This document shows, one piece after another, positions 10,856-57,406 of a stretch of DNA of 64,000 bases (its first letter is position 1; each line of letters begins with the position of its first letter). The stretch comes from an uncultured Acidobacteriota bacterium (GTDB lineage: Bacteria > Acidobacteriota > UBA6911 > RPQK01 > JAPXNP01). The DNA lies in NCBI GenBank assembly GCA_964524795.1, contig CAZGEH010000003.1, forward strand, positions 78,675-142,674. The letters run 5' to 3'. The notes beneath the pieces were generated by a model. The model saw only the letters and a list, made by a program, of their open reading frames with translations. It made no database searches and was not told the origin of the DNA. The translations under genes and the position numbers were made by a program.

Positions 10856-11857
10856 TTACAGCCCGCCACCCGATTCCACATGGCTGCGGACGGCCGCCTC
10901 CAGCTCCTCAGCCGAGACGGTGGCGGTTCCCAGTTTCCCCACCACGATGCCGGCGGCCAGGTTGGCCAGCAGGGCCGCCTCGACGGTGGTCGCCCCGGCA
11001 GCTTTGGCCAATGACACAGTGGCGATCACCGTGTCCCCGGCACCCGTCACGTCGAAAACCTCGCGGGCCACGGCCGCGATATGGGTCAGGTCGCGCCCGT
11101 CAAACAGGGTCATGCCGCGCTCTCCCAGAGTGATCAGGACCTCGCCGGCCCGGGCCTGTCGGCGGATGATGCGGGCCGCCGCCAGCAGGCGGTTCGGGTC
11201 GTCCAGGAGCAGTCCGGTGGCCTGTTCGGCTTCCTTGAGGTTGGGAGTGATGAGGGAAACCCCGCCGTAGACGCCAAAATCCCTGCGCTTAGGATCGGCT
11301 GCCACGAACTTGTGTTCCGCCCGGCAGGTGGCGATCAGGGAGCTTGTGATGAGAGGATCCACGGCGCCTTTGGCGTAGTCAGAGATGACGACTGAGTTCA
11401 CCCGCTTCACCAGACCCGTCGTCCGCCTGGCCAGGCGGGCCAGGCCTTCTTCGACGGGCGGCCGCGCTTCCCGATCAAAACGGCAGACCTGCTGGTGATG
11501 GGCGATGATGCGGGTCTTGCAGGTGGTGCGTCCCGGCTGGCGAATGACGTCGTCACAGCCGACGCCCGCCCCGGCCAGCAGCTCCAGCAACCGGTCCCCG
11601 TCCGGGTCGGTGCCCACCAGGCCGGCCAGTTCGGCCCGCCCCCCCAGAGCCACGACATTGGACGCCACGTTGGCCGCCCCGCCCGGCAGCTCCGATTCCC
11701 GTTGCACTGCCACCACGGGGACCGGGGCCTCGGGAGAGATCCGTTCGACCGTCCCCCAGATGAAACGGTCCAGGATCAGGTCGCCCAGGATGGCGACACT
11801 GCATCCCTTGAAGGCCCTTACCAGCTCCAGCAGTCTCCGCCCGTTCAGTCGATTCAT
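10856..11857 (-). CDS. PfkB-family sugar kinase, HldE/RfaE domain-I-like (D-glycero-beta-D-manno-heptose-7-phosphate kinase)
   Basis: 333 aa. Shows CSVAILGDLILDRFIWG...PGGAANVA...DVTGAGDTV, the ribokinase-fold anion-hole and GAGD motifs in RfaE kinase-domain order. There is no adenylyltransferase domain II. Confidence 0.7.
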   Translation of the reverse strand: MNRLNGRRLLELVRAFKGCSVAILGDLILDRFIWGTVERISPEAPVPVVAVQRESELPGGAANVASNVVALGGRAELAGLVGTDPDGDRLLELLAGAGVGCDDVIRQPGRTTCKTRIIAHHQQVCRFDREARPPVEEGLARLARRTTGLVKRVNSVVISDYAKGAVDPLITSSLIATCRAEHKFVAADPKRRDFGVYGGVSLITPNLKEAEQATGLLLDDPNRLLAAARIIRRQARAGEVLITLGERGMTLFDGRDLTHIAAVAREVFDVTGAGDTVIATVSLAKAAGATTVEAALLANLAAGIVVGKLGTATVSAEELEAAVRSHVESGGGL

Positions 11858-11869
11858 GTCCTTGCCCGG

Positions 11870-14800
11870 TCATCGAACCGCCAGGTACCCGAACACGTAG
11901 GCAGTGGGTCCCAGCGTCTGCATCACCGTGAATTCCGTCGTTTCGGGAAACAGGAAGATGTCGAAGTATGCTGACAGTGTCGGCCAGCGATCCACCGTCG
12001 GATACAGGGCCGGTGCCATCAGGTTGATGGCCCAGTGTCCCTTGGCGAAGGTCTCCATATCGAAGGGACCGTAAACCGTGATCCCTTGCGGCGGCTCCTG
12101 GTTGGTGCGGCGCTGGTCCACCACCAGGGGATGGAGGGGCTGCCGGAAGCCGATGCCGGTGGTGTATGAAAGCCCCAGGGGATTGGCGCCGATTCCAGTC
12201 TGGCAGGCGGCCACAATGGTTCTCAGCAGTTCGGGATCGCCTGTCAACCGGTGTGCCCGCGCCAGAGTGACCGCCTGAGGTGCCGAGAGTTTGCCGAAGC
12301 CGACCGGCTCCCAGGGATCCTGCTTGGTCCAGTTGAAGCCGGTCCGTTGTGACTGCTGGACTGACCTGGCCGCCTCCCGGAGGATTGCATTGCGGGCGTT
12401 GTTCTGGACCACCGCATCGACATCGCCGGACTCCAGCAGACAGTAGAGAAAGGCGGCGTCACGCTGGTTGTGGCTGCGCCACACAGCCGGATCGGCTGCA
12501 GGACTCGTGAACTTGGTGGTCTCCAGGAAGATGCGGTGCCAGTTCGGATCACCGGTTAGCCGGTAGAGTTCGAGGGCTGCCAGATTGCGGGCATCACGAA
12601 CCTCGTTGAGGGCATTGGCGACGGCGTCCGGGTCAGCCGGCTGAGCCGGCCGCGACTGCAGCCAGGCCGGATACTCCGACTCCGCCCAGGCAGCAGCGCG
12701 CAGGGCGCTGTCCCGATAGACCTGCGCCAGCGCCGGTCCCACCCGCTCCAGGGCGAGCGAGGCCCTTGCCGCCACCCCCGCATAGATGAAGCTGCTCCAG
12801 ACGTCAGGGGCATAGGCCATCACCGGCAGCGATTCCTGCCAGCTCGTCTCGCCGTAACGGGGATGCTCGGCGGATTCGATACCGCCCCGAATCCCCCCGG
12901 AAGGCGTCTGCATCCGGCGATATACGTCAAGTCCCCAGATGGCCTCATCCAGCAGGTCGGGAACCCCATTGCCCGACTCGGGCAGGCCCAGTTCCCCGTC
13001 TTCGAAGGCGCCGGGGAAGGCGAGGATGAGCTCCAGCAGAAGGCGGGCGGCTTCCAGATGCTGGATTCGCCGGTCCCAGTCCCCGGCGTCGAAGTATCCG
13101 CCCCAGGCCTGGGGAACGGGCTCAGAGGTTTTCCCGGCTACCAAATCACCGAAGTTTCCGTCGCGGTTTCCGTTGGCGTCCAGGCCGTTGCCCGAATCCG
13201 CCAAGGTGGCGGTGGACGCGTACACCACCATCCCGTCGTCGGGATGAAAGGCCCGGGGGCGCTCGAAACGGCTGAACGGAGGCCCGATGGAGATCCCGCT
13301 GCGCTGGTGGTAGAAACCCCTGGCGGAACGCCGGTGCGCACGGCGCCACACTTCCGGGCCCACCTCGAACGGTTGGGAGCAACCGACCCCCTGCAAACAG
13401 GCGCGATACACCCCGGGACGGCTCAGCTCGCTGAAGTCCAGCCGATAGACATCGACCCCACTGTAGTTGCGATTGTAGGGATCCTCCGTCCTGTCGGCGG
13501 CCGCCTTGCCGAGGATCACCGGTCCGGACAGGACCGGCGATCCGTCCTCATCCCGGATCTGGAAAGTCGGACTTCCGGTCAGGCTGAGGCCGCCTCCGTC
13601 ACCCATCCAGACGGCCACGTAGCCCCCCTTGAACGGATCATCCGGCCGGAAACCGACCTGGGAAACCAGGACCGCCTCACTAAGATTTCGGTCCGGATCG
13701 TGGTGGTAGGTGATTTCCGGCAGGAAGGACTCATCGAAGCGGATCCGGTACGTTGCTCCCGCCTTCAACGGACCGGGAAACCGGAAATACAGAGTATGCT
13801 CCAGCGGCCATTCGAAAGACCAGACTCCAGTCTGCACCATGTCCCAGGGTGCGGTCCGCCGATAAACCGCCAGGGGATGCCGGCTGGTGGGGAGCGCGGG
13901 ATCGCCTTGAGACTCGATCAGATAGGTCCGCGGCTCCTTCAGTCGGTTCGCTCCCTCAGGACCGGCAAGCAGGGCGGGGACGCCTTGCAGCCGATCAAAG
14001 GGACAGAGCACGTTCCGCTCCGGTCCCACCAGCGCCCCCACGATCTGGCCTCCTCTCCTCAGCCACACCGATCCATATTCGCCGGAGAGTTCCACCATGT
14101 CTCCCGGCTCGGGCTGGTAAGGGACCTGCCGGGCGCCGATACGTTTACCGGACCGCAAGCTCACCGCCAGCATGTCGGGAGCCACCGCACCCACCCGCAG
14201 GATTTCACGCTGAAACCGTTCCCGGACCTGGGAAGGCAAGGCAGGATGATCGGGGGTCCAGACCCCGAAAACGGGGAATGAGGTGATACCGCCCGTCACC
14301 GCCAACAGACGGTCATCCTCCAGGTTCCACCCCTGAACCAGTTCCACGTCCTGGATGCCGGGTATGGTTGCCCAGACCAGCAGTTCGTCCGCCGCCGGCG
14401 AATAGAGGGTCAGGGCTCCGGACCCGGATTCCGCAATCAACAGCCGGATGGCTGCGGGACAGGAAACTCCGCTCCGGAAGACCGCCTCCAGGGCCACCGG
14501 GCGCAAAAGACCTTCGCGGACGGTTTCCCGCCGGTTAGTGATCCGATCCCAACGGACGAGGCGGCCGGCGGCGGTTTCCACCACGTAAACATGACCCGTA
14601 CAGGGGTCCACCGCCGCCTGGGCAGGCTGAACACCCGGGACCAGCACCTCGCGCCGCCGGTCGGGGTAGGAAAATGTTCCCAGCCCGTGGTTCAGTGCAA
14701 ACGACGCCACCTTGGACAGGAAGGCCGCCTCCGCGATCAGCAGGTTGCCGGTAATGGGGTCGAGAGCCAGCTTTCCCGGGTTGTTCAGTCCCTCCAGCAG

Positions 14801-16788
14801 CACGGCTGACTGGCCATTTCGGGGGTCCAGCCGCAACAGCCGGCCGGCACTGGTCGCCGCCAACAGGTACTCCTTGCCGTCGAGAGCCTGCCAGCTCAAC
14901 AGCCCTCTGAGCTGCTGGCCGGCGATCTGGGCTGCCGGAGAACCCTGCCGGCGCAAGATCCTGGTGTTGCCGCCGGAGAGTTCCGCAAGATACCACTCGC
15001 CCCGAAACTGGGAATGGGCCGCCAGCAAAGGGGTCCCGGGAAGCGTGGACGGACCTGCCACGTCGACCGTGGCCCCGACGGCCTCAACGATGCCACGCCG
15101 GGACCACTCGAGGGTCACCGCAACCGGTGCCAGAGGTTCAGCCGCCGGAGCCCGATACATGCCACCGGCGGTGACAGTTCCCACCTGGGTGTCGCCTCCC
15201 GGCCGGCCGTTGACTTTCCAGACCCAGTCCGTTGCGGCAACCGGCATCGTCGAAACCGTTCCGGTTTGCCCGCGGGTGATCTGGGCGGAGGGGCCGGAGG
15301 ATTCCGCCAGACCCGGCGGCGGGGAGAAGTTGTAAGTCGCACCGGGGGAAAGCCGGATCAGGGTCGGCTCGAGACGTGCGACCTCCGCTCCCCCAGGAGC
15401 GAAGCCTCCAGCCGGCGACTGAGGCGGGATGTTGGCCAGCACGCCACGGTGTGATCCGGTTTGGAGTCGCCCGAACAGCGACGTCATCGCCAGTGGGGTG
15501 TCCGCGACGATCCAGACGATGCCTCCAGCCAGTCCCGCGGTTTCGGGAACGAACTCGGTCAGCAGCCTGCTTTCCCGCTGGCCGGGAAGCAGGGCGCCCC
15601 GGCAGGTGCCGACCTGCGAGCCATCGGATCGAACAGCCAGAAGGGTGTAGTTGGCCACGGCGGAACCGGGGTTGAGCAGGGCGATGCCGGTAAAGTAATC
15701 CAGAGTAGTGGCGATGTGGGAAAAGACGGCAGAACTCTGGGACCTGTGTGCCGCCGCAACGGCAGCAACCATCCCCTGTTCAGGAACCGAATACACCAGC
15801 GTGCCCAGCAGGGTCGGCGAGGCCGATCTCACCCGCAGCCAGCCGGTGCTGAGACCTCCACGGAATCCGAAAGTCTCCTCGAGATCCTCGTACAGGCTTT
15901 CAGATGGACCCACCACCCGGGTCACACGGCTGGTGTGCGCCTTATTCGGTCCGAAAGGAGTCCCGTCCGGCTGGAAGGCTTCCATGATGATTTCCGCAGT
16001 GCCGGTGCCGAGATGGACCAGGTAGAGCTCCGACCGGTAGGGCGGGCCGACAGCCAACTGCGGGAAGAGCAGCTCTGATGCGGCCCCCGTAACCGGCTTG
16101 GCGTTGACCGCCCAAGCGTCGGCACCGGTCTCGACCAGTTGGTAGCCGGCAACCGGAACCTGGGACTTCACCAGTACGTGCCCGGGTTCTCCTGTGGGCG
16201 AGGAGCCCAGGTCGGAGGCGACGGAGACCTGGGAAGAACCCCAGGGCGGGATGATCAGACTGCGCTCGCTGGGGCCACCCCTCGTGACCAGGTTCAGGAG
16301 GACGCCCGCGTGCTCCGGATTGGGATTGACCAGAGTGAGTTTCGCCTCGCCCCTGGCGGGCGGGGGAACCGCCTCAAACACAAGCTCGCGAGCCGGCGCC
16401 GGCGTGACGGCTCCGTCCAGCCAGGTGACATCCTGGTCGAACTGAAGAAAAAACCCGGTGAGGGCTGGAGTCCCGGACTCCGCCGCCACCCAGATGCCGT
16501 TCGAGTCGGACCACCCGCTCCCGAAGAGGGACAATGCGACCTCCGCGACTTGGCTCCCTGGCCGCACCTCGAGCTGGACCGGGTTGGAGATGCGTTCACC
16601 CCTCGGCATCCGTCCGGCGTCGTCGTAGGCCGTGAGCCTGACGGAAAGCGTCTGTCCCCCCGTGTTCGACAGAGCGATTCCGGTATGCGTTCCAGGTCTG
16701 TCCGCCAGCCGCGGGATGATCAAACGGTGCTCCTCCGCTCCGAACGGCAGGAACAGATTCAGACAGAGCAACAGGCAGGTGGATGTCA
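11870..16788 (-). CDS. Giant secreted multi-repeat protein with C-terminal GH9-like (CelD N-terminal Ig-like + (alpha/alpha)6) domain
   Basis: The ORF runs to 16981. The probable start is TTG at 16788-16786, 12 nt after AGGAGG, giving a signal-like MTSTCLLLCLNLFLPFG. About 1,100 aa of beta-rich repeats (Ig/NHL-like segments such as TGHVYVVETAAGRLVRWD) precede a C-terminal region with GH9-like motifs (WGGYFDAGDWDRR, NPLGLSYTTGIG...PLHP). Confidence 0.65.
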
Positions 16789-16832
16789 AGGATCGCAGGT
16801 CCTCCTGATCGCAGGCAAGTGGCGGTACCGGG

Positions 16833-18023
16833 TCACACGTAACCTGACACCGCCGGCCGGTGGCGCGCGCCACGCTCCTGCGCGATCCGCTCCACATAGC
16901 CGCTGGCGCGCAAAGCCGCCAACGGGTCTGCCGGGAGGCCGCGCCGTTGGCGCCAGGCCCGAATCCAAGGGCGGACATCACGCCGGAAAGCCTCCTTGAG
17001 ACACTCTTCCGCGTCCACCAGGCGGCACTCGTTCTGATACTGCACCAGGGCCGCGAAGTCCACGGTCGCCGCCTTCACCCACAGTTCCTGGACCGTGTCC
17101 ACCGTCTGGACCATCGCTTCCAGCTTGCCCTTGAGATTGTGGCTCTGGTCCACCATGAAGGCGATGCAGGGGGTTGAACCGGTTTCCCACTGGTACAGCC
17201 GGATCTCGTAGAAGACGCGGAACATCTGGTAAGGATCGATGGAGCCGACGGTGAGGTCGTCGTCTGCGTAACGCCGGTCATTGAAATGGAAGCCGCCCAG
17301 CATGTTTTCGCTGAGCAGCCAGGCGACGATCTGCTCGATGTTCTGGGTGGGATAGTGGTGACCTGTGTCCACCAGCACGCGAGCCGAAGCCCCGGCCTTG
17401 GAGGCGTGCAACAAGGCCATCCCCCAGTCGGCGATGTCGGTGTGGTAGAAGGCGGGTTCGAAAGGTTTGTATTCCACCAGCATCCGCTCTTCCGGCTGCA
17501 GCATGGCCGCGACTTCCCGCAGGCCTTCCTCGAACCATTGTTTGCGGCGCCGGATGTGCGCGGTTCCCGGGTAGTTGGAGCCGTCGGCAAACCACAGGAC
17601 CAGCTCCCGGCTGCCCACCGCCCGCATCAGGCGGACGCTCTCCCCGATGTGGTCAAGGGCCTTGCGTCGTACCGCCGGGTCAGGGTTACCCAGTGAGCCG
17701 TATTTGTAGTCCTGGTCCTCGAACAGGGTCGGGTTGATGGAGCCGATCCCCAGCCCCAGCCGGCGGGCATGCTCGACAATGGCGGCAGCCCGCTCGATTC
17801 CACCCGGGAAGTCCCAGGCCGCATGGACGGCCACCGTAGGGCAGCAACCCGTCAAACGGTGGACCTCCGCGGCGTCCTGGAGTTTCTCTTCGATGGTGGT
17901 GGCGGCAGCCGGCTGAAGGAATTTTCCGAAACGCGTCCCGGTGTTGGCAAAGCCCCAGGAGGGAAGCTCGATCCGAAGCTGGTCCAGCACCAGGGCCGCC
18001 GTCTGTTGCAGCGAGTGGTCCAT
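16833..18023 (-). CDS. L-rhamnose isomerase, Pseudomonas stutzeri L-RhI type (xylose-isomerase-like TIM barrel)
   Basis: Strong resemblance to P. stutzeri L-RhI, as recalled: PSWGF.NTGTRF, YKYGSLG, GGFHFNDRRYADDDL, MVDQSHN, YRASGY-like C-terminus. Confidence 0.8.
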   Translation of the reverse strand: MDHSLQQTAALVLDQLRIELPSWGFANTGTRFGKFLQPAAATTIEEKLQDAAEVHRLTGCCPTVAVHAAWDFPGGIERAAAIVEHARRLGLGIGSINPTLFEDQDYKYGSLGNPDPAVRRKALDHIGESVRLMRAVGSRELVLWFADGSNYPGTAHIRRRKQWFEEGLREVAAMLQPEERMLVEYKPFEPAFYHTDIADWGMALLHASKAGASARVLVDTGHHYPTQNIEQIVAWLLSENMLGGFHFNDRRYADDDLTVGSIDPYQMFRVFYEIRLYQWETGSTPCIAFMVDQSHNLKGKLEAMVQTVDTVQELWVKAATVDFAALVQYQNECRLVDAEECLKEAFRRDVRPWIRAWRQRRGLPADPLAALRASGYVERIAQERGARHRPAVSGYV

Positions 18024-24656: not shown

Positions 24657-25412
24657 TCCCCGCGCAGACGCCGGCGGTAGGCGTCGAAGACCTGGTGGTT
24701 GTGATCCGGGCGAACGCCGGGAACATTGGGCGAGACGAAAGTCGTCAGGTGGCCCCCCCGGGAGCGCAGCGCCTGCGCCGTCTCCGCCACCAGCGCCATG
24801 CTGATCGCAATGACCGCCAGGGTCGAGCCGGCCCCCACCTTCTCGATCTGCCCCACATCCACCAGGGCGTCTTCAGGTGGGACGCAGTTGTCGATGACCA
24901 GGTCGGCGGCATCGGCCAGCTTCCGGCCCGAGGAGTGGACGGGCGCCGATCGGCGGTGGTTCTCCAGGGAGGTAACAGCGATCACCCGGGTGCCCCGTTC
25001 CCGGACGTAGAGAGCCGCCTCGATGGGCGCTGCGTTCAGACCACCGTGGGAGTACACCAGCAGACAGTCTTTCCCACTGAAGGGGTACTCCGCCAGGAAG
25101 TTGGCGATATAACCTTCCCGCCGCTCGAGCCACAGGAGCTCCGGCGCCCCTCCCGGTCCGACGACGTTGAACCACATCAGCCTGGGATCCATCAGCGGGC
25201 GGAAACCGACGAAGCTCCCGTAGCGCGGGAAGACGTCCAGCACCGGGATGACGGAATGCCCGCTGCCGAACAGATAGACCCAGCCGCCCGCCTGGATGCT
25301 GTCGGCCATGATTCCAGCCGCCTGCCGGATAGCGTCGGCCTGGGACCTGCGGATATGGCCCAGCAGCCGTTCGGCCTCATCGAAATAACGCTCGCTGCTC
25401 ACCCTGACTCTC
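24653..25412 (-). CDS. SIS-domain protein (sugar-phosphate isomerase/binding family)
   Basis: GTG start 7 nt after AGGAGGAG. VSSERYFDEAERLLGHIRRSQADAIRQAAGIMADSIQAGGWVYLFGSGHS... is a SIS phosphosugar-binding fold. The upstream Gly/Arg-rich in-frame extension is judged non-coding. Confidence 0.6.
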
Positions 25413-26274
25413 CTCCTTCCAGCCGGGCGGCTGCCGCCGCCCCCAGAACCCCGGCCTCCAGGCCGAGGCTGCCGGGCTGCACTCTCACCCGTTTGACGGC
25501 CTCCGGCTGTGACCATCGCTGCATGGCGTCCAGTGCGTCCTGCTTCATCCATTGCCAGCTCCGGCTGACCCCCCCGCCCAGCAGAATGAGCTGAGGGTTT
25601 AGCAGGCTGACCAGCAGGGCCAGAACCCTTCCCACCACCGAACCCACCTCGGCGAACAGCCGAATCGCCCCCGGGTGCGCGGAGGCGGCCAGGGACGCCA
25701 GTTCCGGCACGGTTCCGGCAAGACCCCGCCGGCAAGCATGGCGCACAATGGCCGGGCCGGCTGCCACCTCCTCGAAATGGCGGAGTTCCCCCTCGAAACT
25801 GACCGGGACCCAGCCCACCGAACCTGCAATCTCATCATGGCCGCGAACCAGCCTCCCTCCGCTCACGATCCCCGCCCCGATGCCGGTGCCCAGGATCAGA
25901 TACACCACATCGCGGCAACCCCGAGCGGCTCCGTAGAGCAGCTCGCCTAGAACCGCGGTGTTGCGGTCGCTCTCCACCACCACCGGCAGCCCCGACGCTT
26001 CCGCCAGCCGTGAACGCAAGGGAATGTAGTCCCAGCCGGGGATGTTGGGCGCCCAGACCCGTCCCGTGCCGCGTTCCGCGATTCCCGGAATGCCGATCCC
26101 CGCCGCCCGGACACCCTGCTCCCGGTACCGGCGGAGCAGTTGGACAAGCTGTTTCACCACTTCCTCCGAGCCGGCTGCATCGGTCGGCTGGACCTGCAGG
26201 CTGGACACATGGCCGTCCCTGTCCACCAGTCCGGCGGCGATTTTCGTCCCTCCGAGGTCAATACCGAGATACAT
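25399..26274 (-). CDS. ROK-family sugar kinase (glucokinase/N-acetylglucosamine kinase-like)
   Basis: MYLGIDLGGTKIAAGLVD, a central LILGTGIGAGIV, a C-terminal GHDEIAGSVGW...LLGGGVS (ROK motifs). The ORF extends to 26343. Confidence 0.8.
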   Translation of the reverse strand: MYLGIDLGGTKIAAGLVDRDGHVSSLQVQPTDAAGSEEVVKQLVQLLRRYREQGVRAAGIGIPGIAERGTGRVWAPNIPGWDYIPLRSRLAEASGLPVVVESDRNTAVLGELLYGAARGCRDVVYLILGTGIGAGIVSGGRLVRGHDEIAGSVGWVPVSFEGELRHFEEVAAGPAIVRHACRRGLAGTVPELASLAASAHPGAIRLFAEVGSVVGRVLALLVSLLNPQLILLGGGVSRSWQWMKQDALDAMQRWSQPEAVKRVRVQPGSLGLEAGVLGAAAAARLEGGESG

Positions 26275-26285
26275 GTCGCCGCCGC

Positions 26286-27032
26286 TCACGAACTGATGCC
26301 GGGAATGTGGCTCAGGAAGTACGGAAGCTGCTTCCGCCACCAAGGCCAGTCATGATCCACGTCGAACCCCCAGTAGTCAATCCAGGCCGGAACCTCCTTC
26401 TTCCGCAGGATCCCTTCCAGAGCCCGGGTGTCGGCCAGCATCGGTTCCTCCCAGGCGCCTTGGCCCACGCAGATCACGATGAAGCTCCGCCGGTACCGAT
26501 CCAGGTACCAGGGATCATGGAGGTTGGGGAGATACAACAGGGGACTGTTCAGATAGACCCCCTCGTCCACGTAGTCCCCGACAAACATCTGGAGCTGGTA
26601 GAGGCCGCTCAGGGCGATCGTTCCCTCGAACACGTCCGGATGGCGGAAGAAGAAGTTGGCGGCGTGATAGGCACCCATGGAACAGCCGGTGGCCAGCATC
26701 CGGGGGTACCCTCCGCAATGGTGGCGGACGAAGGGCGCCACCTCCCGAACCAGGTAGGCGTCGTAGTCCTCGTGACGCCGGGCCCGCTCCGCCGGGTGGG
26801 CGTTCCGGTTGCACCACGACTCCGAGTCGACGCTGTCTACGGCGAAAAGTTTGACCTTTCCGCCCTCGATCAGGCTCCCCACCGCCTCCACCATGCCAAA
26901 GCCTTCAAAGTCGTAGAAACGGCCTGCCTGCACGGGGAACACCACCACCGGCTTGCCGTAGTGCCCGTAGACCTTCAGTTCCATGTCCCGGTTCAGATGC
27001 GGGCTGAACCACCGGTGGTACTCGACGTGCAT
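26286..27032 (-). CDS. Esterase-family protein (esterase D / enterochelin-esterase-like alpha/beta hydrolase)
   Basis: MHVEYHRWFSPHLNRDMELKVYGHYGKPVVVFP...GCSMGAYHA (GxSxG)...DHDW, i.e. PF00756-like. Start chosen at the internal Met (ORF to 27122). Confidence 0.6.
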   Translation of the reverse strand: MHVEYHRWFSPHLNRDMELKVYGHYGKPVVVFPVQAGRFYDFEGFGMVEAVGSLIEGGKVKLFAVDSVDSESWCNRNAHPAERARRHEDYDAYLVREVAPFVRHHCGGYPRMLATGCSMGAYHAANFFFRHPDVFEGTIALSGLYQLQMFVGDYVDEGVYLNSPLLYLPNLHDPWYLDRYRRSFIVICVGQGAWEEPMLADTRALEGILRKKEVPAWIDYWGFDVDHDWPWWRKQLPYFLSHIPGISS

Positions 27033-35764: not shown

Positions 35765-37523
35765 TCAGGGCAAGGGGCCGGGGTTTCCGGGCTCTCCCAG
35801 GATACGGTGAAGCCAGTCCACCAATGCCTCCCGATAGGACCACTCCGGCCGACCCTCCCAGTTCTCCAGCCCATGCGGCGCGCCCTCCAGGGCTACCAGC
35901 CTCGTCGAAACACCCAGCTCCAGCAGCCGCTCGTACATCCGGCGGCCCTGCTCCCACAGCCGCTCCGCCGTGCCGTGGATCAACAGTACCGGGGGCATTC
36001 CGGCATGGACATGGTAGTAAGGCGAGATCCGCCGCAGCAGCTCCCGTCCCGTTTCGTCCCATTCCTGATGCCGGAGCAGGCGCACCAGGAACGACCGGGG
36101 ACCGGCGTCAGTGACCAGGGGCAGGAAATCGTAGACGCCGTAAAAGGAAACAATCCCCGCCACGCGACAGGACTGACGTTCCACGGGATCCGGGTCAGCC
36201 GGCCTGCCGGCGCAGGTTTCCAGCCCCACCTGCATCGCCAGGTGCCCGCCGGCGGATTCCCCCAGCAGGACGATCCGTCGGGGATCCACCTTGAACTCCG
36301 GTGCATGGTGTCGGATCCAGCGGACGGCCCTGCGAATGTCCTCGAACTGGTCGGTGACCGTCACCTCCGGAGTCAGCCGATAGTCGACTGAAAACCAGGC
36401 GAAGCCGGCTCGCGCCAGGAGGCCCAGCAGCGGGGCCAGATAAGTGACCTTGTCGCCCGCTTCCCAGCCGCCGCCATGCACCAGGACCACCGCTGGGAAA
36501 GGTCCGGCGCCCGCAGGTATCCAGGCGTCCAGCAGCAGAGGGGTATCGCCCCGCGCCCCCGCCCGGTGGGCAAAAGGGATGTTCTTGCGCAGGTTGAAAT
36601 CGCGGGGATCGGCCGGGGCCGGCTGCAGGCCGCCCGCGCGCCTTTCCAGCCAGTCCGCCAGAATGCGGCGGTAGCCCTGCTGGGCGGGCAGCCAGTTCTC
36701 GGCCCGATGTCCGGCTTCCTCCACCTCGAAGACGGTACAGTCACCATGGGCGCGCTGGATCTGGGCGCAGTAATCGTAAACCTGGCTGACAGGCACTTCC
36801 GAATCGGCGCCCCCATGAATCAGCAGCAGCGGCGGCATCCCCTCGGCCGCCGCTCGGGACAGCGGGAGCCGGTCCGGTGACGCCCCGCCGCCGGTGAGCT
36901 GCCGTCGAAACGCTCCGCCGGAGTTCCATTCCCGCAACGACGTGGGATCATAGAGCCCGCCCACCAGGATCAGGCCGTGGACTCGCCCGGGATGGGCGGC
37001 GGCGACACGGGCCGCCAGATAGGCGCCGGCGTGTTCACCCAGGAGGCAAATACGGCGGGGATCCACTCCGAACCAGCCCGCATTGCATTCGATCAGCGAC
37101 AAGGCGGCATCCAGATCCGAAAGCTGTTGCTGAAGCGTTGTACCGGGGCCGACTCGATAGTCCACCGAAAACCAGTTCAGCCCCAAGCGGGTGAGAAATT
37201 CGAACCATTGGGTTACAAAGGCGGTGCGGCTTCCTCCCGACCAGGCGCCGCCATGGATCAGCATCACTCCAGGCCGGGACGGACCGCCGCCGTGGCTGAA
37301 AGCATCCAGCGCCAGCCGACGGCCGTCGATCTCCCGGTAAACGATCTCCCCCTGCACACCAGGCACGATGTAGTTTCCGTTGGGATTGCCGACTACGGGC
37401 TGGGGGCATGGTTCGGGCCCGGCGCCGGCCAGGCGGGGCTGGACGAGCAGCAGCAACAGCAGCGCCGTTCCCGGCAGGAGGGTCGGGTTTCCCCGTCGGG
37501 TACCCCGGAGAGTCATGCAGCCC
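35765..37523 (-). CDS. Secreted tandem alpha/beta-hydrolase (two esterase/lipase-fold domains fused)
   Basis: 586 aa from MGCMTLRGTRRGNPTLLPGTALLLLLLV (signal peptide). Two successive HGGAW/HGGGW oxyanion motifs, each with GxSxG (GEHAG, GESAG) and a C-terminal HG. The 385-codon upstream in-frame extension is antisense to glgC and rejected. Confidence 0.7.
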
Positions 37524-37807
37524 ATCCTAGCAGGAGCCAAGACAGGACTGCGCAACCCCGCGCTCCCTGCGTGTCGGCATCGGGTCTGGACTGCGCCCCC
37601 GCGCTCGCTCCAGCTCGGGTTCACAGGGCAATCGAACGTGGGATGCCCGTTGTTCGACTCTGCCTCCTGTCTCCCGTTCCCTGCATTCCGCCTCCCTCCC
37701 CTCGCCGGAGGACTTCCGTTGCAGCGTCGGGTATTCTGATTCACAGTTGGGACCGAGGTTTTTTTGCGGCGAGACCAGGACGGAGCAGGATTGAGGAGGA
37801 AGGATCC

Positions 37808-39145
37808 ATGGCTGTTTCGATGGAGCGTCCCCAGCGTGGCGTCGGCATTCGGGAACTGGATCGGCTGACCACCTTCATCCTGGCCGGAGGCAAGGGAGAG
37901 CGCCTGTATCCACTGACGGAGCATCGGGCCAAACCTGCAGTCACGTTTGGGGGAATCTACCGCATCATCGACTTCACACTGTCCAACTGCATTAACTCGG
38001 GCATTCGGAGAGTCTATGTATTGACCCAGTACAAGTCCGTATCGTTGGCCCGCCATATCAAGGAGGGCTGGAACATGTTGCCCAGCGAGCTGGGCGAGTT
38101 CATCGAAGTGACCCCGGCGCAGCAGAGGTATGGCGAAAACTGGTATCGGGGCACGGCCGACGCCATCTTCCAGAACATCTACACGGTGGAGCGCGAGAAT
38201 CGTGACTTCGTGCTGATTCTGGCAGGGGATCACATCTACAAGATGGATTACTCGAAGATGCTGTCCTTCCACCTCGATCACGGAGCGGACATCACCATCG
38301 GGGCCGTCGAAATGCCGATCTCCACCTGCCGCCTGTTCGGGGTCCTGCAGGTGGACGACGGTTACCGGGTGACCGAGTTTGCCGAAAAGCCCGAGGTGGC
38401 GCGGCCCATTCCCGGCAAGCCGGACTCCATCTACGCCTCGATGGGAATCTATCTTTTCAACAAGGAGAACCTTTTCGAAGATTTGATCCCGGCTGTGGCA
38501 CACGAAAACATGCGGGATTTCGGACAGGAGATCCTGCCTTCTCTGGTGGAAAAGCGGCGGATCCTGGCTTACGAATTCGAGGACGAGAACCACCGGGTGC
38601 CTCCTTACTGGCGCGATATCGGGACGCTGGACGCCTTTTATGAAGCCAACATGGATCTGGTCTCGGTAGACCCCCAATTCAACCTGTACGACGCCCGGTG
38701 GCCGGTGCGCAGTTATCAGCCTCCCTTTCCGCCGGCCAAGACGGTCTTCGCGGATCCCGGAGAGGGGGCCCGCCGGGGAGAAGTCCTGGACTCGCTGGTG
38801 AGCTCAGGATGTATCGTCAGCGGCGGCCACGTCCGCCGCTGCATCCTTTCGCCGAAGGTCCGGGTGAACAGCTACGCCCACGTGGAGGATTCCGTCCTGA
38901 TGCACGGGGTTGAAGTGGGGCGACGCGCCCGGATTCGCCGGGCTATCATCGACAAGTACTGTACGATCCTGCCGGATACGGTGATTGGCTACGACCCTGA
39001 GGCGGATCGCAAACGCTTCACGGTGACCGATGGAGGGGTGGTGGTGATTCCGGCCTCCCGGGTGGTCGGGCCCGACAAGACCACCCCGGCCTGGATCGAC
39101 CCGGTGGTCCGCTACACCCGTGGGCCTCGGACCGTTCTGTCCTGA
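37808..39145 (+). CDS. glgC: Glucose-1-phosphate adenylyltransferase
   Basis: LAGGKGERLYPLT, GTADAIFQN, ILAGDHIYKMDY, C-terminal left-handed beta-helix; RBS GAGGAGGAAGG 5 nt upstream of the ATG. Confidence 0.9.
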   Translation: MAVSMERPQRGVGIRELDRLTTFILAGGKGERLYPLTEHRAKPAVTFGGIYRIIDFTLSNCINSGIRRVYVLTQYKSVSLARHIKEGWNMLPSELGEFIEVTPAQQRYGENWYRGTADAIFQNIYTVERENRDFVLILAGDHIYKMDYSKMLSFHLDHGADITIGAVEMPISTCRLFGVLQVDDGYRVTEFAEKPEVARPIPGKPDSIYASMGIYLFNKENLFEDLIPAVAHENMRDFGQEILPSLVEKRRILAYEFEDENHRVPPYWRDIGTLDAFYEANMDLVSVDPQFNLYDARWPVRSYQPPFPPAKTVFADPGEGARRGEVLDSLVSSGCIVSGGHVRRCILSPKVRVNSYAHVEDSVLMHGVEVGRRARIRRAIIDKYCTILPDTVIGYDPEADRKRFTVTDGGVVVIPASRVVGPDKTTPAWIDPVVRYTRGPRTVLS

Positions 39146-42839: not shown

Positions 42840-43406
42840 GTGGTACATTCGTGGACCATGGCACGGTTCCGACTGCTGCGGTACTGGATCGGCTGGTTGC
42901 TGGGGTTGGCGGCGGCAGCCGGCCCCGGCTGCACTTCCACCCCTCCCGAGGGGACTCCCATCGACCTCGAAGCAATGCGGGAGTTCAAGCCGTTCGAGCT
43001 GCGGACGCTGGGGGGCGAGACCCGACGGCTCGATGACTATCTCGACCGCGTCACGCTGGTGGCTTTCTTCTTCCCGACTTGAGGGACCTGCAATGCGGAG
43101 TTGCCGCATTTGCAGGACATCTACCGGCGGTACCAGGACCGGGGTATGGCCATGGTGGCCATCAACGTGGTTCCCGAGCAGGATCCCCTGGTGCCGGGTT
43201 GGATCGAAGCCGGGGGCTATACCTTCGACGTGCTGGTGGGCGCCAGCACGGAGGAGATCTTTCGGGACTATGGGATGACGGGTGCGCCTTTGACCTTTCT
43301 GCTGGATGCCGACGGCAAGATCCTGGCCCGCTGGGACGGCTACCAGCCGGGTGCCGAGACGGCGGTCGAGGAACGGATCCAGGCCGCTCTGGCCGCGGGC
43401 GGGTAA
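42840..43406 (+). CDS. TlpA/ResA-like thioredoxin-fold lipoprotein with in-frame UGA at the first redox position (probable selenoprotein, U-G-T-C motif)
   Basis: ORFs 42840..43082 and 43101..43406 are in the same frame and are separated only by TGA (43080-43082). The read-through product …RVTLVAFFFPT-U-GTCNAELPHLQDIYRRYQDRGMAMVAINV...APLTFLLDADGKILARW… aligns with TlpA/ResA (…FWASWCGPCRAE…GFVVLGVNVD…IPTTFLIDRDGKIV…). Signal peptide with GPGC lipobox-like cysteine. A SECIS-like hairpin follows immediately (listed separately below). Confidence 0.65.
43087..43116 (+). promoter_or_regulatory. SECIS-like hairpin 4 nt 3' of the in-frame UGA
   Basis: CCUGCAAUGCGG-AGUUG-CCGCAUUUGCAGG: a 12-bp stem with a single bulged U and a GU-containing apical loop about 20 nt from the UGA. 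This matches the geometry of bacterial SECIS elements such as fdhF. Confidence 0.55.
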
Positions 43407-43519
43407 GGTGCCGGCGGGGCTGCCGGCCGGCGGATCCCGGCCCAAGGCCCAAAAAGGGGTCCGCGGAAGATCCGGCGCCGACTGGCCGTCCGGCGTTCAG
43501 ACTGTCTCCGCCTCCGGCT

Positions 43520-45586
43520 ATGATGGCAGCAGGCATGGCCCGATCCCGGAACGGCGGTTGGCGAAACCCGGTCCCGTTTCTTTTCGCCGGCTTAATCTGG
43601 GTGCTCCAGCCGTTGGCTGCCGTCCCGTCCGAAGGGGAACTTTCCCTTTCCGCTCTGGACCGCCACCCGAAGATCTTCAGCCCCAGAGTACAGGGCGAGT
43701 CGTGGACATGGTGGCTGCCGGCAGGGTTCGACCGGCTGGTCCTGCCTGTGTCCGGCGGCGTGCTGGTGGAGTCTTCCGATGCCGAAATGATTGCGTGGGC
43801 CCGGCGGGGATCCCCCTGGACCCTGAACCAGCTCCCCGCTGCAGGAGCCTCATACCGGGGGCAGATGGCGGTGGTGATCGTCCCCTGGCCCCATTACGCC
43901 GAACTGGTGGTGGGCGAACGGCTCGGCATCCGGTTTGTCTTCCCCCCCGGGAGAGAAAGCACGACCCCATCAGAGATCGTGGCGGCGTTGGTGGAAGACG
44001 ACCTGCTGGCGCCGGCCCGGGTCTTCCGCCAATGGCGCCGCTCGCCAACCGGCGAAGGCGGCATCCCGGCCCCCCGGCCGCTGTCCCGGAAAGCCGAAGA
44101 GCGGCCTGCCGTAGGGCGGCTTTTCGGAGCCGCGCACTTCTACCTGTGGGGGCCGATGCTTTTCAGCCGCCACGACGTACGACGGGGTGGTTGGGCAGCC
44201 TGGGCTCGGATCCTGGCCGGCGCTCCGGAGGGGTCGGCGCCCGCCCGATTGTGGCGGGAACTGGGAGCTGACGCCCGGGCGGCATTCGAGAAGCTGGCCG
44301 AAGGGAGCCACGAGACAGGATCGCTCACCGCCCGGGCCGCTGGCGGCGTCGATCGAGCGCTACGGGATCCTCGCTGGCTGCAGCAGCCGGCGGAAACTAC
44401 TCCCGCCGCCGTGATCCACCGAAACCGGGAGGAACTGGAGCAACTGTTCGCCCCATTTCTTGAACCGCCCGCCACCTGGGGGGACGGCCCTTCCAGGACG
44501 ATGATCGATGCGCTTTCGGCCGCCGGGATCCGTCGTGCCGTTCTGCTGTTGAGCGAACTCCACGGGGCTTCGCCGCGCCCTGAGCTGGCCGCCTACGCTG
44601 CCGCCGCCGGCTATCTAATGGGTCCTTACGATTCCTACCACTCGGTTCACGATCCGGACGCCCCACCCGATGAGACTTGGGAAACGGCCCAGTTCGACCG
44701 GGAGGCTTACCTGCAGGGACGCATCCTGGACCCCGAGGGTCGGGGCCGGCCCGGTTTCCGGGGGCGGGGCTTCCATTTCTCGCCGATTGCGGCCTGGCCC
44801 TGGTTTCTGGACCGTGTCGGCCGGTTGGCGGCGCAAATCCCTTACAACGCCTGGTTTGTGGACTGTGATGCCACCGGAGAACTGTTCGACGACTACCATC
44901 CCGACCATCCGGCAACACGTGTGGACGATCTCGCCGCCCGGCGCCGCCGGTTGGAGTGGCTGGGCCGGGAGCGCGGCCTGGCGGTGGGAAGCGAGGAAGC
45001 GTCGGTCCTGGTGTCGGATGTTGTGGATTTCGGACAAGGTGTCCAGACCCCGTATCTGGGGCATCTGGATCCCGTCCTGTGGGATCCGGAGAGCCCCCAT
45101 TTCCTGGGCCGTTACTGGCCACCCGAGAGTCCTGCCCGGTTCTTCGGTGAGGTGCCCGTGGCACCCTCCCTGCAGCGACCGTATTTCGACCCGCGGGTCC
45201 GGGTGCCACTGCTGCGGGCGGCCTTCGGGGATGAGGTGGTGATGAGCCACCACTGGGAAGGTGACAACTTCAAATTCCGTGATGTGGCTGAAATCCGTGA
45301 GCTGATGGAGATCCTCCACATGACGGCGCCGCTTTACCATCTGAACCGGGACACCTGGCCGCGCCGCCGGCAGCGGATCCTGCGCCATCTGGCAGTCTGG
45401 GCCCCGCTGCACGAGAAGCTGGCGACCGCCGCCCTGACCCGGTTCGAGTGGCTGACACCCGACCGTCTTGTGCAGCGCACAACCTTCGAATCGGCGGAGG
45501 GCTCTTTCCGCATCACGGTCAACCTCGACGCCGTCGAACGGGAGGGGATTCCCCCCCGCTCGGTGCGGGCGGAGGGCGGAGGGTAG
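43520..45586 (+). CDS. Hypothetical secreted protein (about 688 aa; possible glycoside-hydrolase-like TIM barrel, unassigned)
   Basis: Start MMAAGMARSRNGGWRNPVPFLFAGLIWVLQPLAA (signal/anchor). No motif I can assign with confidence. The upstream in-frame ORF extension from 43079 overlaps the selenoprotein gene and is rejected. Confidence 0.45.
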   Translation: MMAAGMARSRNGGWRNPVPFLFAGLIWVLQPLAAVPSEGELSLSALDRHPKIFSPRVQGESWTWWLPAGFDRLVLPVSGGVLVESSDAEMIAWARRGSPWTLNQLPAAGASYRGQMAVVIVPWPHYAELVVGERLGIRFVFPPGRESTTPSEIVAALVEDDLLAPARVFRQWRRSPTGEGGIPAPRPLSRKAEERPAVGRLFGAAHFYLWGPMLFSRHDVRRGGWAAWARILAGAPEGSAPARLWRELGADARAAFEKLAEGSHETGSLTARAAGGVDRALRDPRWLQQPAETTPAAVIHRNREELEQLFAPFLEPPATWGDGPSRTMIDALSAAGIRRAVLLLSELHGASPRPELAAYAAAAGYLMGPYDSYHSVHDPDAPPDETWETAQFDREAYLQGRILDPEGRGRPGFRGRGFHFSPIAAWPWFLDRVGRLAAQIPYNAWFVDCDATGELFDDYHPDHPATRVDDLAARRRRLEWLGRERGLAVGSEEASVLVSDVVDFGQGVQTPYLGHLDPVLWDPESPHFLGRYWPPESPARFFGEVPVAPSLQRPYFDPRVRVPLLRAAFGDEVVMSHHWEGDNFKFRDVAEIRELMEILHMTAPLYHLNRDTWPRRRQRILRHLAVWAPLHEKLATAALTRFEWLTPDRLVQRTTFESAEGSFRITVNLDAVEREGIPPRSVRAEGGG

Positions 45587-47125: not shown

Positions 47126-47322
47126 TCGCATTGCTAGGTCCCGCTCCGCGGGATCGGTGTGATCCGAGTGACTCCGCAATGCCACCCAGATGTCAGCTTC
47201 GCTCCCGACTCCGGGTTCCCGACTCCTCTCCCCTCTTCCTTGACTCGCCATGCCGCCCGGGTTGATACTTATGCCAATTTACAATTCTGATTTTCCATCC
47301 ATTGGAACAGCGAGGTGGGGGT

Positions 47323-49804: not shown

Positions 49805-49815
<11 letters not shown>
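47323..49815 (+). CDS. Sulfatase-like hydrolase/transferase (alkaline-phosphatase superfamily) with about 340-aa N-terminal domain of unknown function; lipoprotein
   Basis: Start MAALPRGCRGWVVLAGSVLGLAVGPSCGG (lipobox). The C-terminal half carries the sulfatase fold (VILVVADTLRRDHLNFHGY...FVFLHVFDPHDPY...FTSDHGE), but the formylglycine motif C/S-x-P-x-R is replaced by T-W-T-K-V-S-V-P-S-M. Confidence 0.65.
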
Positions 49816-51939
<2,124 letters not shown>

Positions 51940-51943
<4 letters not shown>

Positions 51944-56703: not shown

Positions 56704-57024
56704 ATGAAAGAGAAATTACAAGTGGTTCTGGCAAAGCTCAAGGAGAGACTTGCGCAACTCTACGGAGAAAGGCTCAGGGGGGTGTACATCTTTGGTTCAT
56801 ACGCCCGCGGCGAAGCCGATGAGGAGTCGGACCTGGACGTGCTCATCGTCCTGGACCAGGTTGAGAACTACTCGGCCGAGATCGACCGGACCGGCGAAAT
56901 CGTCTCGGCGCTATCGTTGGAATCAGGCTTTACCATCAGCCGGGCATTCGCCTCCGAGGAGCGCTGGCTGGCGGACCAGACGATGTTTTTCTTGAACGTA
57001 CGTGAGGAAGCGGTGTCGGTATGA
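56704..57024 (+). CDS. MNT-family nucleotidyltransferase (minimal NTase; antitoxin of an HEPN/MNT module)
   Basis: GSYARGEADEESDLDVLIV is the Pol-beta-type GS…D.D motif. 106 aa. Its stop overlaps the ATG of the downstream HEPN gene (ATGA). Confidence 0.8.
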   Translation: MKEKLQVVLAKLKERLAQLYGERLRGVYIFGSYARGEADEESDLDVLIVLDQVENYSAEIDRTGEIVSALSLESGFTISRAFASEERWLADQTMFFLNVREEAVSV

Positions 57025-57406
57025 AGGAAGAAGCCCGAAAGCTCCTGGAGAAGGCGGAACGCGCCCTGGAAGCGGCGCAAAGGCTGCACCGAGACGGGGA
57101 CTACGAATCCGCGGCGGGACGGGTGTACTATGTAATGTTTCACGCGGCTCAGGCCCTGCTGCGGCAGCAAGACCTGCGTTATCGCAAGCATGCAGGGGTC
57201 CACGGTGCCTTCGGGGAGCACTTCGCCAAGACCGGTCTGCTAATGTCAAGTACCACCGTTACTTGCTGGATGCCTTCGATGATCGCCTTCGCGCGGATTA
57301 CGAGATTGACGGCCTCGCAGGGCTGGGGCGTCGCTCTGCGGGCTTACTCCACGGTTTCAGGCTGAGTCGACGCCTCCAGCGCCGGGCACACGCGGCGCCG
57401 CCCTGA
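57021..57406 (+). pseudogene. HEPN-domain toxin gene, frameshifted (-1 near 57245)
   Basis: Frame 1: MKEEARKLLEKAERALEAAQRLHRDGDYESAAGRVYYVMFHAAQALLRQQDLRYRKHAGVHGAFGEHFAKTGLL, with the R-x4-H HEPN motif. It then loses similarity. The canonical continuation …KYHRYLLDAFDDRLRADYEIDG… is in a neighbouring frame (ORF 57002..57406). Confidence 0.7.

Follow-up and report, generated by a model that had tools for sequence, protein, structure and literature searches.

A stretch of 64,000 nucleotides (nt) from an uncultured Acidobacteriota bacterium (GenBank assembly GCA_964524795.1, contig CAZGEH010000003.1, positions 78,675 to 142,674 of the forward strand), called the window hereafter, contains two genes for members of glycoside hydrolase family 9 (GH9). 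Gene 1 (11870..16789, minus strand) encodes a chimera of two complete units, an N-terminal module that recurs at the head of other Acidobacteriota proteins and an entire GH9 unit that exists elsewhere as a stand-alone protein. Gene 2 (58974..61544, plus strand) is an unremarkable representative of another GH9 clade, separate from that of gene 1, and each of the two clades is well separated from the characterised cellulases. The reading that we favour, and regard as somewhat probable, is that gene 1 encodes a secreted Acidobacteriota chimera of N-module and GH9 unit acting on a soluble or decorated beta-1,4-linked glycan, and that gene 2 stands apart from it in its own clade. What is new is the gene 1 fusion, which is unique and represents an architectural variant of a known enzyme family. 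Both sequences are already present in public databases, where they are automatically annotated as GH9 or endoglucanase.

The GH9 unit of gene 1

A preliminary description of the window, made from the sequence alone, had noticed GH9-style motifs in the C-terminal part of gene 1. The strings that it quoted are all found (WGGYFDAGDWDRR and NPLGLSYTTGIG...PLHP in gene 1, GGWFDAGDFD and NEYTIG in gene 2), and the relationship of gene 1 to GH9 is borne out by profile as well as by structure comparison. Gene 1 is a GH9 member with an (alpha/alpha)6 fold that is superimposable on those of solved GH9 enzymes. Its enzymatic part has the following features, with residues (aa) counted from the TTG start codon.

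11870..16789, minus strand: gene 1, predicted secreted multidomain protein of 1,639 aa; TTG start, stop codon at 11870-11872
11873..14203, minus strand: complete GH9 unit, aa 863-1639 (777 aa), with end-to-end homology to stand-alone exported GH9s
13700..14203, minus strand: N-terminal beta domain of the GH9 unit, aa ~863-1030 (model strands at unit residues 7-175), without Pfam match
13391..13678, minus strand: CelD_N Ig-like domain, aa ~1038-1133 (Pfam PF02927, E 2.4e-6)
11873..13342, minus strand: GH9 (alpha/alpha)6 catalytic domain, aa ~1150-1639 (Pfam PF00759, PDB profile matches, fold search)
13079..13090, minus strand: DAGD Asp pair D1234/D1237 in AWGGYxDAGDWDRRIQHL, invariant in 122 aligned sequences
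11933..11935, minus strand: E1619, putative catalytic acid, an invariant Glu within YFDIFLFPETTEFT

Pfam coordinates of both genes follow the longest open reading frames (ORFs), which start 64 aa (gene 1) and 80 aa (gene 2) further upstream than the starts adopted here. On that numbering, gene 1 matches CelD_N at 1102-1197 and Glyco_hydro_9 at 1214-1646, the latter with E 8e-22 and 78.6 bits (cutoff 27.7). A profile of the family to which the unit belongs finds solved enzymes in the PDB, with 3X17 first at E 7.9e-43, 3X17, CelD and J30 together spanning 7.9e-43 to 1.5e-33, and 3EZ8 at 4.3e-13. The model of aa 856-1639 (mean predicted local distance difference test, pLDDT, 87; predicted template modelling score, pTM, 0.90) shows a beta domain and the CelD_N Ig domain ahead of an alpha-helical barrel. 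A Foldseek search with it gives template modelling scores (TMt) of 0.77-0.82 to the Ig plus GH9 structures 3X17, 6DHT, 5U0H (J30) and 1CLC (CelD). The beta domain at the N-terminus of the unit is conserved throughout the stand-alone family.

The core of CelD_N Ig domain and (alpha/alpha)6 barrel is shared with the Ig-GH9 endoglucanases, namely the metagenomic 3X17, CelD of C. thermocellum (1CLC), J30 (5U0H) and Cel9A of A. acidocaldarius (3EZ8). Identity to these enzymes is only 18-25%, however, and gene 1 has DAGDWDRRIQH where they have DAGDY(G/N)KY, while its family has QHPLxxD where they have HPHHR. Gene 1 also carries an extra beta domain of about 170 aa in front of the Ig domain, plus the module of 840 aa that precedes the whole unit.

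Both genes keep the Asp pair of the DAGD motif, as the preliminary description had claimed (D1234 and D1237 in gene 1, D462 and D465 in gene 2), and both indeed lack the canonical residues after it. In gene 1, the pair aligns with the DAGD of 3X17, 6DHT (BoGH9A) and CelD, and AWGGYxDAGDWDRRIQHL does not vary among the family sequences aligned. The view that DAGD(W/F)D is atypical is not supported as far as the aromatic residue goes, which is usual after DAGD in Ig-containing GH9s (DAGDY in 3X17, BoGH9A and CelD). Near the C-terminus of gene 1, in the pattern YFD....P..xEFT, the residues D1610, E1619 and T1621 are invariant. The Glu lies nine residues after D1610 and two before T1621, a spacing that we take to be that of PROSITE GH9 signature 2, and the Pfam matches of two homologues (P0410, P0419) reach positions 433-435 of the 444 in the profile, covering the E1619 region.

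The family consensus QHPL(v/h)(v/i)D, LHPLVVD in gene 1, stands opposite the HPHHR of 3EZ8 and 6DHT, and the conserved His-x-Arg of GH9 signature 1 (HPHHR in the solved enzymes) is absent from gene 1. To judge from these alignments, the active site of the clade is related to that of the cellulases and clearly remodelled. The unit is probably catalytically competent. Because the GH9 Asp pair and the invariant C-terminal Glu are kept, it should be an active beta-1,4-glycanase, for which family chemistry predicts an inverting mechanism. A pseudo-enzyme or a lectin was considered as well and is unlikely, the Asp pair and the Glu being invariant.

A fusion of two complete units

Nine stand-alone homologues align over their aa ~26-785 with aa 862-1639 of gene 1, at 50-52% identity (BLASTP). 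These proteins of about 780 aa match from just past the signal peptide to the last residue. A homology search with the GH9 unit returned 1,486 matches, from Planctomycetota, Verrucomicrobiota, Armatimonadota and cyanobacteria. The gene 1 unit is 50-57% identical to the members from Verrucomicrobiota, Armatimonadota and Planctomycetota and 44-50% identical to the cyanobacterial ones. The stand-alone proteins appear to be exported, having signal peptides, and the cyanobacterial members have lipobox-like leaders.

The fused architecture itself is rare. In an exhaustive HMMER search of aa 500-1639 against 1.84 billion cluster representatives, one cluster at 50% identity combined propeller and GH9, and the remaining 149 best matches had the GH9 unit alone. 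In the GTDB species-representative scan, the fused architecture was not found; its 80 loci match only aa ~830-1639, and the genome of origin was not returned either. Other fusions of the unit do exist, with RTX repeats (P0359), three Laminin_G_3 domains (P0419), a Sde182 nucleoside-hydrolase-like domain (P0415) or a C-terminal cadherin/Big_9 region (P0382). The GH9 unit is thus modular and its fusion to a propeller lineage-specific, because a single HMMER cluster has both and some other homologues carry other extensions. As a side observation, the unit is a mobile catalytic cassette that recurs across lineages.

It could be imagined that an ORF of this size is chimeric through an assembly error, or fuses two genes by way of a frameshift, and the two halves do differ in phyletic affinity, the N-module pointing to Acidobacteriota and the GH9 unit lying nearest to Verrucomicrobiota, Planctomycetota and Armatimonadota. 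Against this, independent assemblies carry the uninterrupted fusion too, 73% identical to gene 1 and flanked as here (isomerase, giant gene, pfkB kinase, ABC-2 transporter, CitMHS, TLC/MFS). The identical protein is on record from NCBI, Logan and JGI sources, and codon-position GC is even along the whole ORF. An assembly artefact is essentially excluded.

The reading frame noted in the preliminary description is real, with an end coordinate (16788) that falls one nt short of the 16789 favoured here. The ORF runs uninterrupted on the minus strand to a stop codon ending at 11870, and the interval (16789-11870+1 = 4920 nt) corresponds to 1,639 codons plus the stop. An in-frame TTG at 16789, with AGGAGG 11 nt upstream, is the start. 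A public database entry (P0001) of 1,639 aa is 100% identical to the protein, and the orthologue P0237 (73% identity) has an ATG at the position equivalent to the TTG, followed by the same short hydrophobic leader. A longer ORF from a GTG at 16981 was rejected; it shares sequence with the 3' end of the isomerase gene upstream, and the orthologue lends it no support. The leader is as follows.

16736..16789, minus strand: N-terminal leader MTSTCLLLCLNLFLPFGA, aa 1-18 of gene 1, probable Sec signal peptide

It is conserved as MWFLSLLLAINTLVPAWG in P0237 and also present in homologues of the N-module, and aa 1-19 have low pLDDT in the AlphaFold model. It is probably a Sec signal peptide, which would imply secretion of the gene 1 protein.

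The N-terminal module

The model of aa 1-865 (pLDDT 88.8, pTM 0.88) is all-beta. It shows four beta-sandwich domains of about 110 aa, which a disordered linker separates from an Ig-like domain and the six-bladed propeller behind it.

15410..16732, minus strand: four tandem ~110-aa beta-sandwich domains, aa ~20-460 (AlphaFold model, pLDDT mostly >90)
14270..15232, minus strand: Ig-like domain (aa ~520-585) and six-bladed NHL-type beta-propeller (aa ~589-840) (model, Foldseek)

The preliminary description had spoken of about 1,100 aa of Ig/NHL-like beta repeats ahead of the GH9 region. This was accurate, because the N-terminal model is all-beta, six-bladed propeller included, and further beta domains precede the GH9 catalytic domain. 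Foldseek relates the module to the PknD sensor (1RWI, TMt 0.72) and to the Ig plus propeller proteins BACOVA_00264 and BT_3476 (E ~1e-9). Pfam NHL matches occur in the module homologues P0005 and P0007, while gene 1 itself has a weak PQQ_2 match only; by its match to 1RWI and the Pfam matches of these homologues, the propeller is of the NHL type. DUF5719 (PF18986) has no Pfam match above threshold in gene 1. The homologue P0014 matches it over aa 37-210 (E 1e-8), so that the tie of gene 1 to DUF5719 is indirect, and a literature search on DUF5719 found nothing.

Gene 1 shares aa 17-817, and nothing further, with over 100 proteins, nearly all of which come from Acidobacteriota as far as they carry a name. 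In all of them the module is at the N-terminus and the C-terminal regions vary; the partners (P0003-P0106) include LRR, DUF11, CARDB, cadherin-like, IPT, cohesin and other domains. The first ~420-440 aa of the module are also found as the C-terminal part of subtilases (P0112, P0115) and of a phosphatase-like protein (P0107). The array is an independent module and no accessory of the GH9 domain. The earlier suggestion of surface presentation or carbohydrate binding is supported in so far as the N-terminus, rich in beta structure, has the look of a module with such a role. Reasoning from the architecture, the most likely function of the N-module is to retain the protein on the cell surface or to bind glycans.

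The arrangement of an Ig domain and, after it, a six-bladed propeller of the NHL type in an extracellular protein is shared with BACOVA_00264 and BT_3476, described as 'auxiliary nutrient binding proteins' (PDB 4HW6, 3TC9), and with the NHL sensor of PknD (1RWI). Identity to these proteins is 9-18%, and gene 1 differs from them in having four additional beta-sandwich domains and a covalently fused enzyme. A side observation is that the module of about 800 aa (14270..16732, minus strand) resembles a phylum-specific carrier or anchor scaffold with interchangeable C-termini.

Exopolysaccharide clusters and the substrate of the gene 1 unit

Members of the gene 1 clade are common in filamentous cyanobacteria, organisms that are not cellulose foragers. 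Their surroundings were compared in the 80 genome loci that the scan of species-representative genomes with gene 1 had yielded, the ORFs in flanks of 6 kb being clustered. At 24 of these loci, mostly cyanobacterial, genes for Wzy (Wzy_C), Wzx (Polysacc_synt_3) and/or a GT4 glycosyltransferase lie within the flanks of the GH9 gene, in most cases directly adjacent (loci L014, L016-L017, L019, L021-L026, L028, L036, L043, L046, L058, L060-L061, L064, L067-L068, L071, L077-L078 and L086; where the flanks are complete, the GH9 gene is usually at about 6001-8300 of the locus). Genes for a Wzc-type kinase, GT2 and NAD-dependent epimerases are often near these GH9s, and the order 'Wzy(-) GH9(+) GT4(+) Wzx(+)' recurs across several genera. 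This arrangement is characteristic of a glycanase that belongs to an exopolysaccharide pathway of the Wzx/Wzy-dependent type. Four contexts of stand-alone members that are Planctomycetota-type or unassigned have variable neighbours that suggest no substrate.

GH9 enzymes that cut the backbone of a bacterial exopolysaccharide do exist in the form of xanthanases (PMC10881899, PMC11002231). One of them, 6FHJ, is matched by the gene 1 family profile (E 1.7e-8) and by the fold search (E 1.1e-17). This endo-xanthanase of Paenibacillus nanensis, which is secreted, has several modules and cleaves a bacterial exopolysaccharide in its beta-1,4-glucan backbone, serves as a functional precedent; it is a much weaker match to gene 1 than the endoglucanases are, and its accessory domains are carbohydrate-binding modules (CBMs), those of gene 1 a propeller module. 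A literature search on GH9 in exopolysaccharide clusters found nothing beyond this xanthanase precedent. Glycoside hydrolases of other families are encoded in exopolysaccharide biosynthesis loci, for example BcsZ (GH8), PslG (GH39) and ExoK (GH16). The cyanobacterial members of the gene 1 clade, which are exported, resemble them in being encoded directly beside biosynthesis genes (Wzy, Wzx, GT4, Wzc, GT2), but they belong to a different family, and gene 1 lies in no cluster of this kind in the window.

The position of the homologues in Wzx/Wzy clusters and the departure of the active-site motifs from those of the cellulases point to a bacterial glycan as the substrate and away from crystalline cellulose. 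With moderate confidence, and on comparative grounds, we consider a soluble or decorated beta-1,4-linked glycan of bacterial or algal origin more likely for gene 1 than crystalline cellulose. The proposed course of events is that an entire exported GH9 unit from the DAGDWDRRIQH clade was fused to a surface or binding module, an event specific to an Acidobacteriota lineage. The product, of about 1,620 aa, would be secreted and probably displayed on the cell surface, where the N-module would retain it or bind glycans. The GH9 unit would then cleave the glycan, for example the backbone of an exopolysaccharide.

The main rival is that gene 1 encodes a conventional secreted cellulase for plant or algal cellulose, its beta domains binding the cellulose or anchoring the protein. 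The proteins that it matches best in sequence and in fold are endoglucanases (3X17, J30, CelD, AaCel9A), source databases automatically annotate the homologues as 'endoglucanase', and the catalytic Asp pair is retained. Gene 1 has, however, no recognised cellulose-binding CBM in Pfam, and the window has no adjacent GH5, GH48, GH6 or beta-glucosidase. The invariant motifs of the clade are different ones (DAGDWDRRIQH, and QHPLxxD opposite HPHHR), and the family is common in photoautotrophic cyanobacteria, inside exopolysaccharide biosynthesis clusters. A conventional cellulase is therefore possible, though we rather doubt it.

Several points weigh against a bacterial or algal glycan as substrate and against the favoured reading more generally. 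The closest solved structures are endoglucanases, and activity on plain beta-glucan is compatible with the data. Wzx, Wzy, Wzc or glycosyltransferase genes are absent from the vicinity of gene 1 in the window, and the gene 1 unit is nearer to the members from heterotrophs, with their variable contexts, than to the cyanobacterial ones embedded in clusters. The synteny of the clusters is largely that of one phylum and partly reflects shared ancestry. Neither the full family profile nor a C-terminal profile of the gene 1 family extended the alignment to solved GH9s as far as the E1619 region, and the literature yielded no characterised member of either GH9 clade.

It is possible to go one step further and to speculate that the DAGDWDRRIQH clade consists not of cellulases but of dedicated exported GH9s that process Wzx/Wzy exopolysaccharides, as a counterpart of BcsZ and PslG. 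The Acidobacteriota lineage may have captured one of them on a phylum-specific surface carrier, on which it would be displayed and degrade the matrix of other bacteria or of cyanobacteria in its surroundings. We offer this as a tentative idea that we think has a minor chance of being right.

Gene 2 and its clade

58974..61544, plus strand: gene 2, predicted exported GH9 of 856 aa, ATG start at 58974 (ORF, Pfam, conservation)
60357-60368, plus strand: D462/D465, invariant in the family
61473-61475, plus strand: E834, invariant in the family

The ATG at 58974 gives an N-terminus like that of a signal peptide and agrees with a database entry of 856 aa (P0239). Pfam recognises, in the longest-ORF numbering, CelD_N (PF02927) at 371-455 (E 7.3e-8) and GH9 (PF00759) at 493-870 (E 1.7e-16). 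The Ig and GH9 pairing described earlier for gene 2 is hereby confirmed, and the same pairing occurs in gene 1. The C-terminal DWPFLWGQNEYT fits the pattern D-x4-W-x3-E-x-T. With both models, the DAGD pair and a C-terminal Glu, gene 2 is by all sequence indications a GH9 member. A search of the PDB with a C-terminal profile of its family gave no GH9 match.

The gene 2 family is large, with at least 7,995 matches at 59-71% identity from Acidobacteria, KSB1 and Ignavibacteria, the members being about 855 aa long. It keeps GGWxDAGDxDI, in which the aromatic position varies, and QNE(Y)(T/V). The family profile matches 3X17 (E 5e-13) and 6DHT (E 1.9e-5). In a single-sequence PDB search with gene 2, BoGH9A (6DHT) comes out best (E 2.5e-8). 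This xyloglucan-specific endo-beta-1,4-glucanase of Bacteroides ovatus, which is also the second best PDB match of gene 1, acts on a decorated beta-1,4-glucan. Gene 2 is about 20% identical to it and has in addition an N-domain of about 250 aa and long insertions.

At three homologous loci of the family, the neighbours include GH106, GH29, GH95, GH51-like, two GH3, an esterase and TonB-dependent receptors, so that gene 2 family members adjoin side-chain-removing glycosidases there. This setting is catabolic and directed at a decorated glycan, with which the match to the BoGH9A xyloglucanase fits. Within the window, no carbohydrate-related genes adjoin gene 2, and its surroundings show no context like that of a polysaccharide utilisation locus.

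The two genes had been regarded as paralogues of one DAGD(W/F)D subfamily, a view that we could not sustain. Apart from a 12-residue motif (E 0.059), BLASTP between their GH9 regions finds no significant match, and hhalign of the two family profiles gives a probability of 74% (E 2.8e-5). As a marker of a shared subfamily, DAGD(W/F)D fails on the variable aromatic position in the gene 2 family, and the neighbour contexts of the two families differ.

Two further observations on the gene 2 family can be added. Its N-domain of about 250 aa (59079..59828, plus strand) is very strongly conserved, with stretches such as YNGMFFDEKTAGIELIHHGVRTATGG nearly invariant across phyla, and is without a Pfam or NCBIfam match. 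In the catalytic domain, a conserved insert, WHGAAHLDDARQAP...HFDGY, lies ahead of the DAGD motif. Upstream of the gene 2 region are two small overlapping ORFs of 106 and 114 aa (56704..57365, plus strand) that resemble, by eye, a toxin-antitoxin pair of the nucleotidyltransferase/HEPN type.

Genes around gene 1

16833..18023, minus strand: L-rhamnose-isomerase-like TIM-barrel sugar isomerase of 396 aa (PF01261), upstream of gene 1 at a distance of 43 nt
10856..11857, minus strand: D-glycero-beta-D-manno-heptose-7-phosphate kinase, HldA type (TIGR02198), 12 nt after gene 1

The order of isomerase, gene 1 and kinase is kept in the orthologous loci L003 and L004. Given the short gaps of 12 and 43 nt and the conserved gene order, co-transcription of all three is probable; a scan for promoter and terminator consensus sequences over 10.5-18.6 kb gave nothing above the shuffled expectation. 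The isomerase matches TIGR02635 with E 2.2e-145 and 484.3 bits, below the curated equivalog cutoff of 531.35. It seems to be a close relative of L-rhamnose isomerase whose specificity is not assured. The downstream pfkB gene exceeds the cutoff of TIGR02198 (369.7 bits against 345).

On a reading that goes back to the preliminary description, genes 1 and 2 form one DAGD(W/F)D subfamily acting on a rhamnose-containing polysaccharide, the rhamnose released feeding the adjacent isomerase. The strong TIGR02635 match of a gene on the same strand 43 nt upstream of gene 1, in an arrangement kept in the orthologue, speaks for this, as do the Asp two residues after DAGD in both GH9s and the GH106 rhamnosidase beside one gene 2 family locus. 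The hint proves weak, however. The isomerase falls short of its cutoff (484 against 531 bits), and the third gene of the presumed operon is an envelope heptose kinase, of biosynthetic and not catabolic character. A rhamnulokinase, aldolase or rhamnosidase does not adjoin gene 1, and an isomerase is found beside stand-alone GH9s neither in the four annotated contexts nor among the annotated recurrent neighbour clusters of the 80 loci. The similarity between the two GH9s is no greater than that of either to other GH9s, and members of the gene 2 family do not consistently have an aromatic residue after DAGD. GH9 enzymes are known to cleave beta-1,4-gluco-configured linkages, not rhamnosidic bonds. 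Taken together, this makes a rhamnose polysaccharide as the common substrate improbable.

The kinase lends itself to a different explanation, in which the gene 1 unit trims or releases the envelope or capsule polysaccharide of the organism itself, in the manner of BcsZ, PslG and ExoK, and is co-expressed with the heptose-7-phosphate kinase. Homologues embedded in Wzx/Wzy clusters, the gene for the HldA envelope-sugar kinase 12 nt downstream in both orthologous loci, and the predicted export of the protein are all in keeping with such self-processing. Yet the part of the window around gene 1 is devoid of genes for glycosyltransferases, Wzx, Wzy and Wzc, a surface module of 840 aa is atypical of periplasmic processing enzymes, and the members found in clusters are not those most closely related to the unit. 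We therefore hold self-processing to be unlikely and, like the rhamnose reading, less likely than a conventional endoglucanase.

Genes of heptose biosynthesis seem to be scattered around the secreted glycanase, with the HldA kinase adjoining and a SIS_2 gene further along the syntenic region. The SIS_2 (GmhA-like) gene is at 781..1530 of the orthologous locus L003, and a ROK gene lies at 25399..26343 (minus strand) in the window. Further hydrolases of the window are the following.

35765..38677, minus strand: 970-aa tandem esterase (Peptidase_S9 and BD-FAE/Abhydrolase_3)
43079..45586, plus strand: GH129-like glycosidase (E 1.3e-88)
47302..53904, plus strand: sulfatase of 837 aa and, after it, two genes of the phosphodiesterase family

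Together, these hydrolases suggest a degrader of sulfated or complex glycans.

Significance

In automatic annotation both genes receive the label 'endoglucanase', and a survey would enter them among the cellulases. They belong to two large GH9 clades (1,486 and at least 7,995 matches) with altered active-site motifs and without a characterised member. Divergent GH9 clades and lineage-specific domain fusions are common, and such cases are useful leads that will not surprise specialists. The fusion in gene 1 draws attention to a modular surface-protein scaffold of the Acidobacteriota. The most interesting lead is the placement of the gene 1 clade in the exopolysaccharide clusters of cyanobacteria. 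If this link is functional, counts of 'cellulases' in metagenomes would overstate the cellulose-degrading potential of Planctomycetota, Verrucomicrobiota, cyanobacteria and Acidobacteria.

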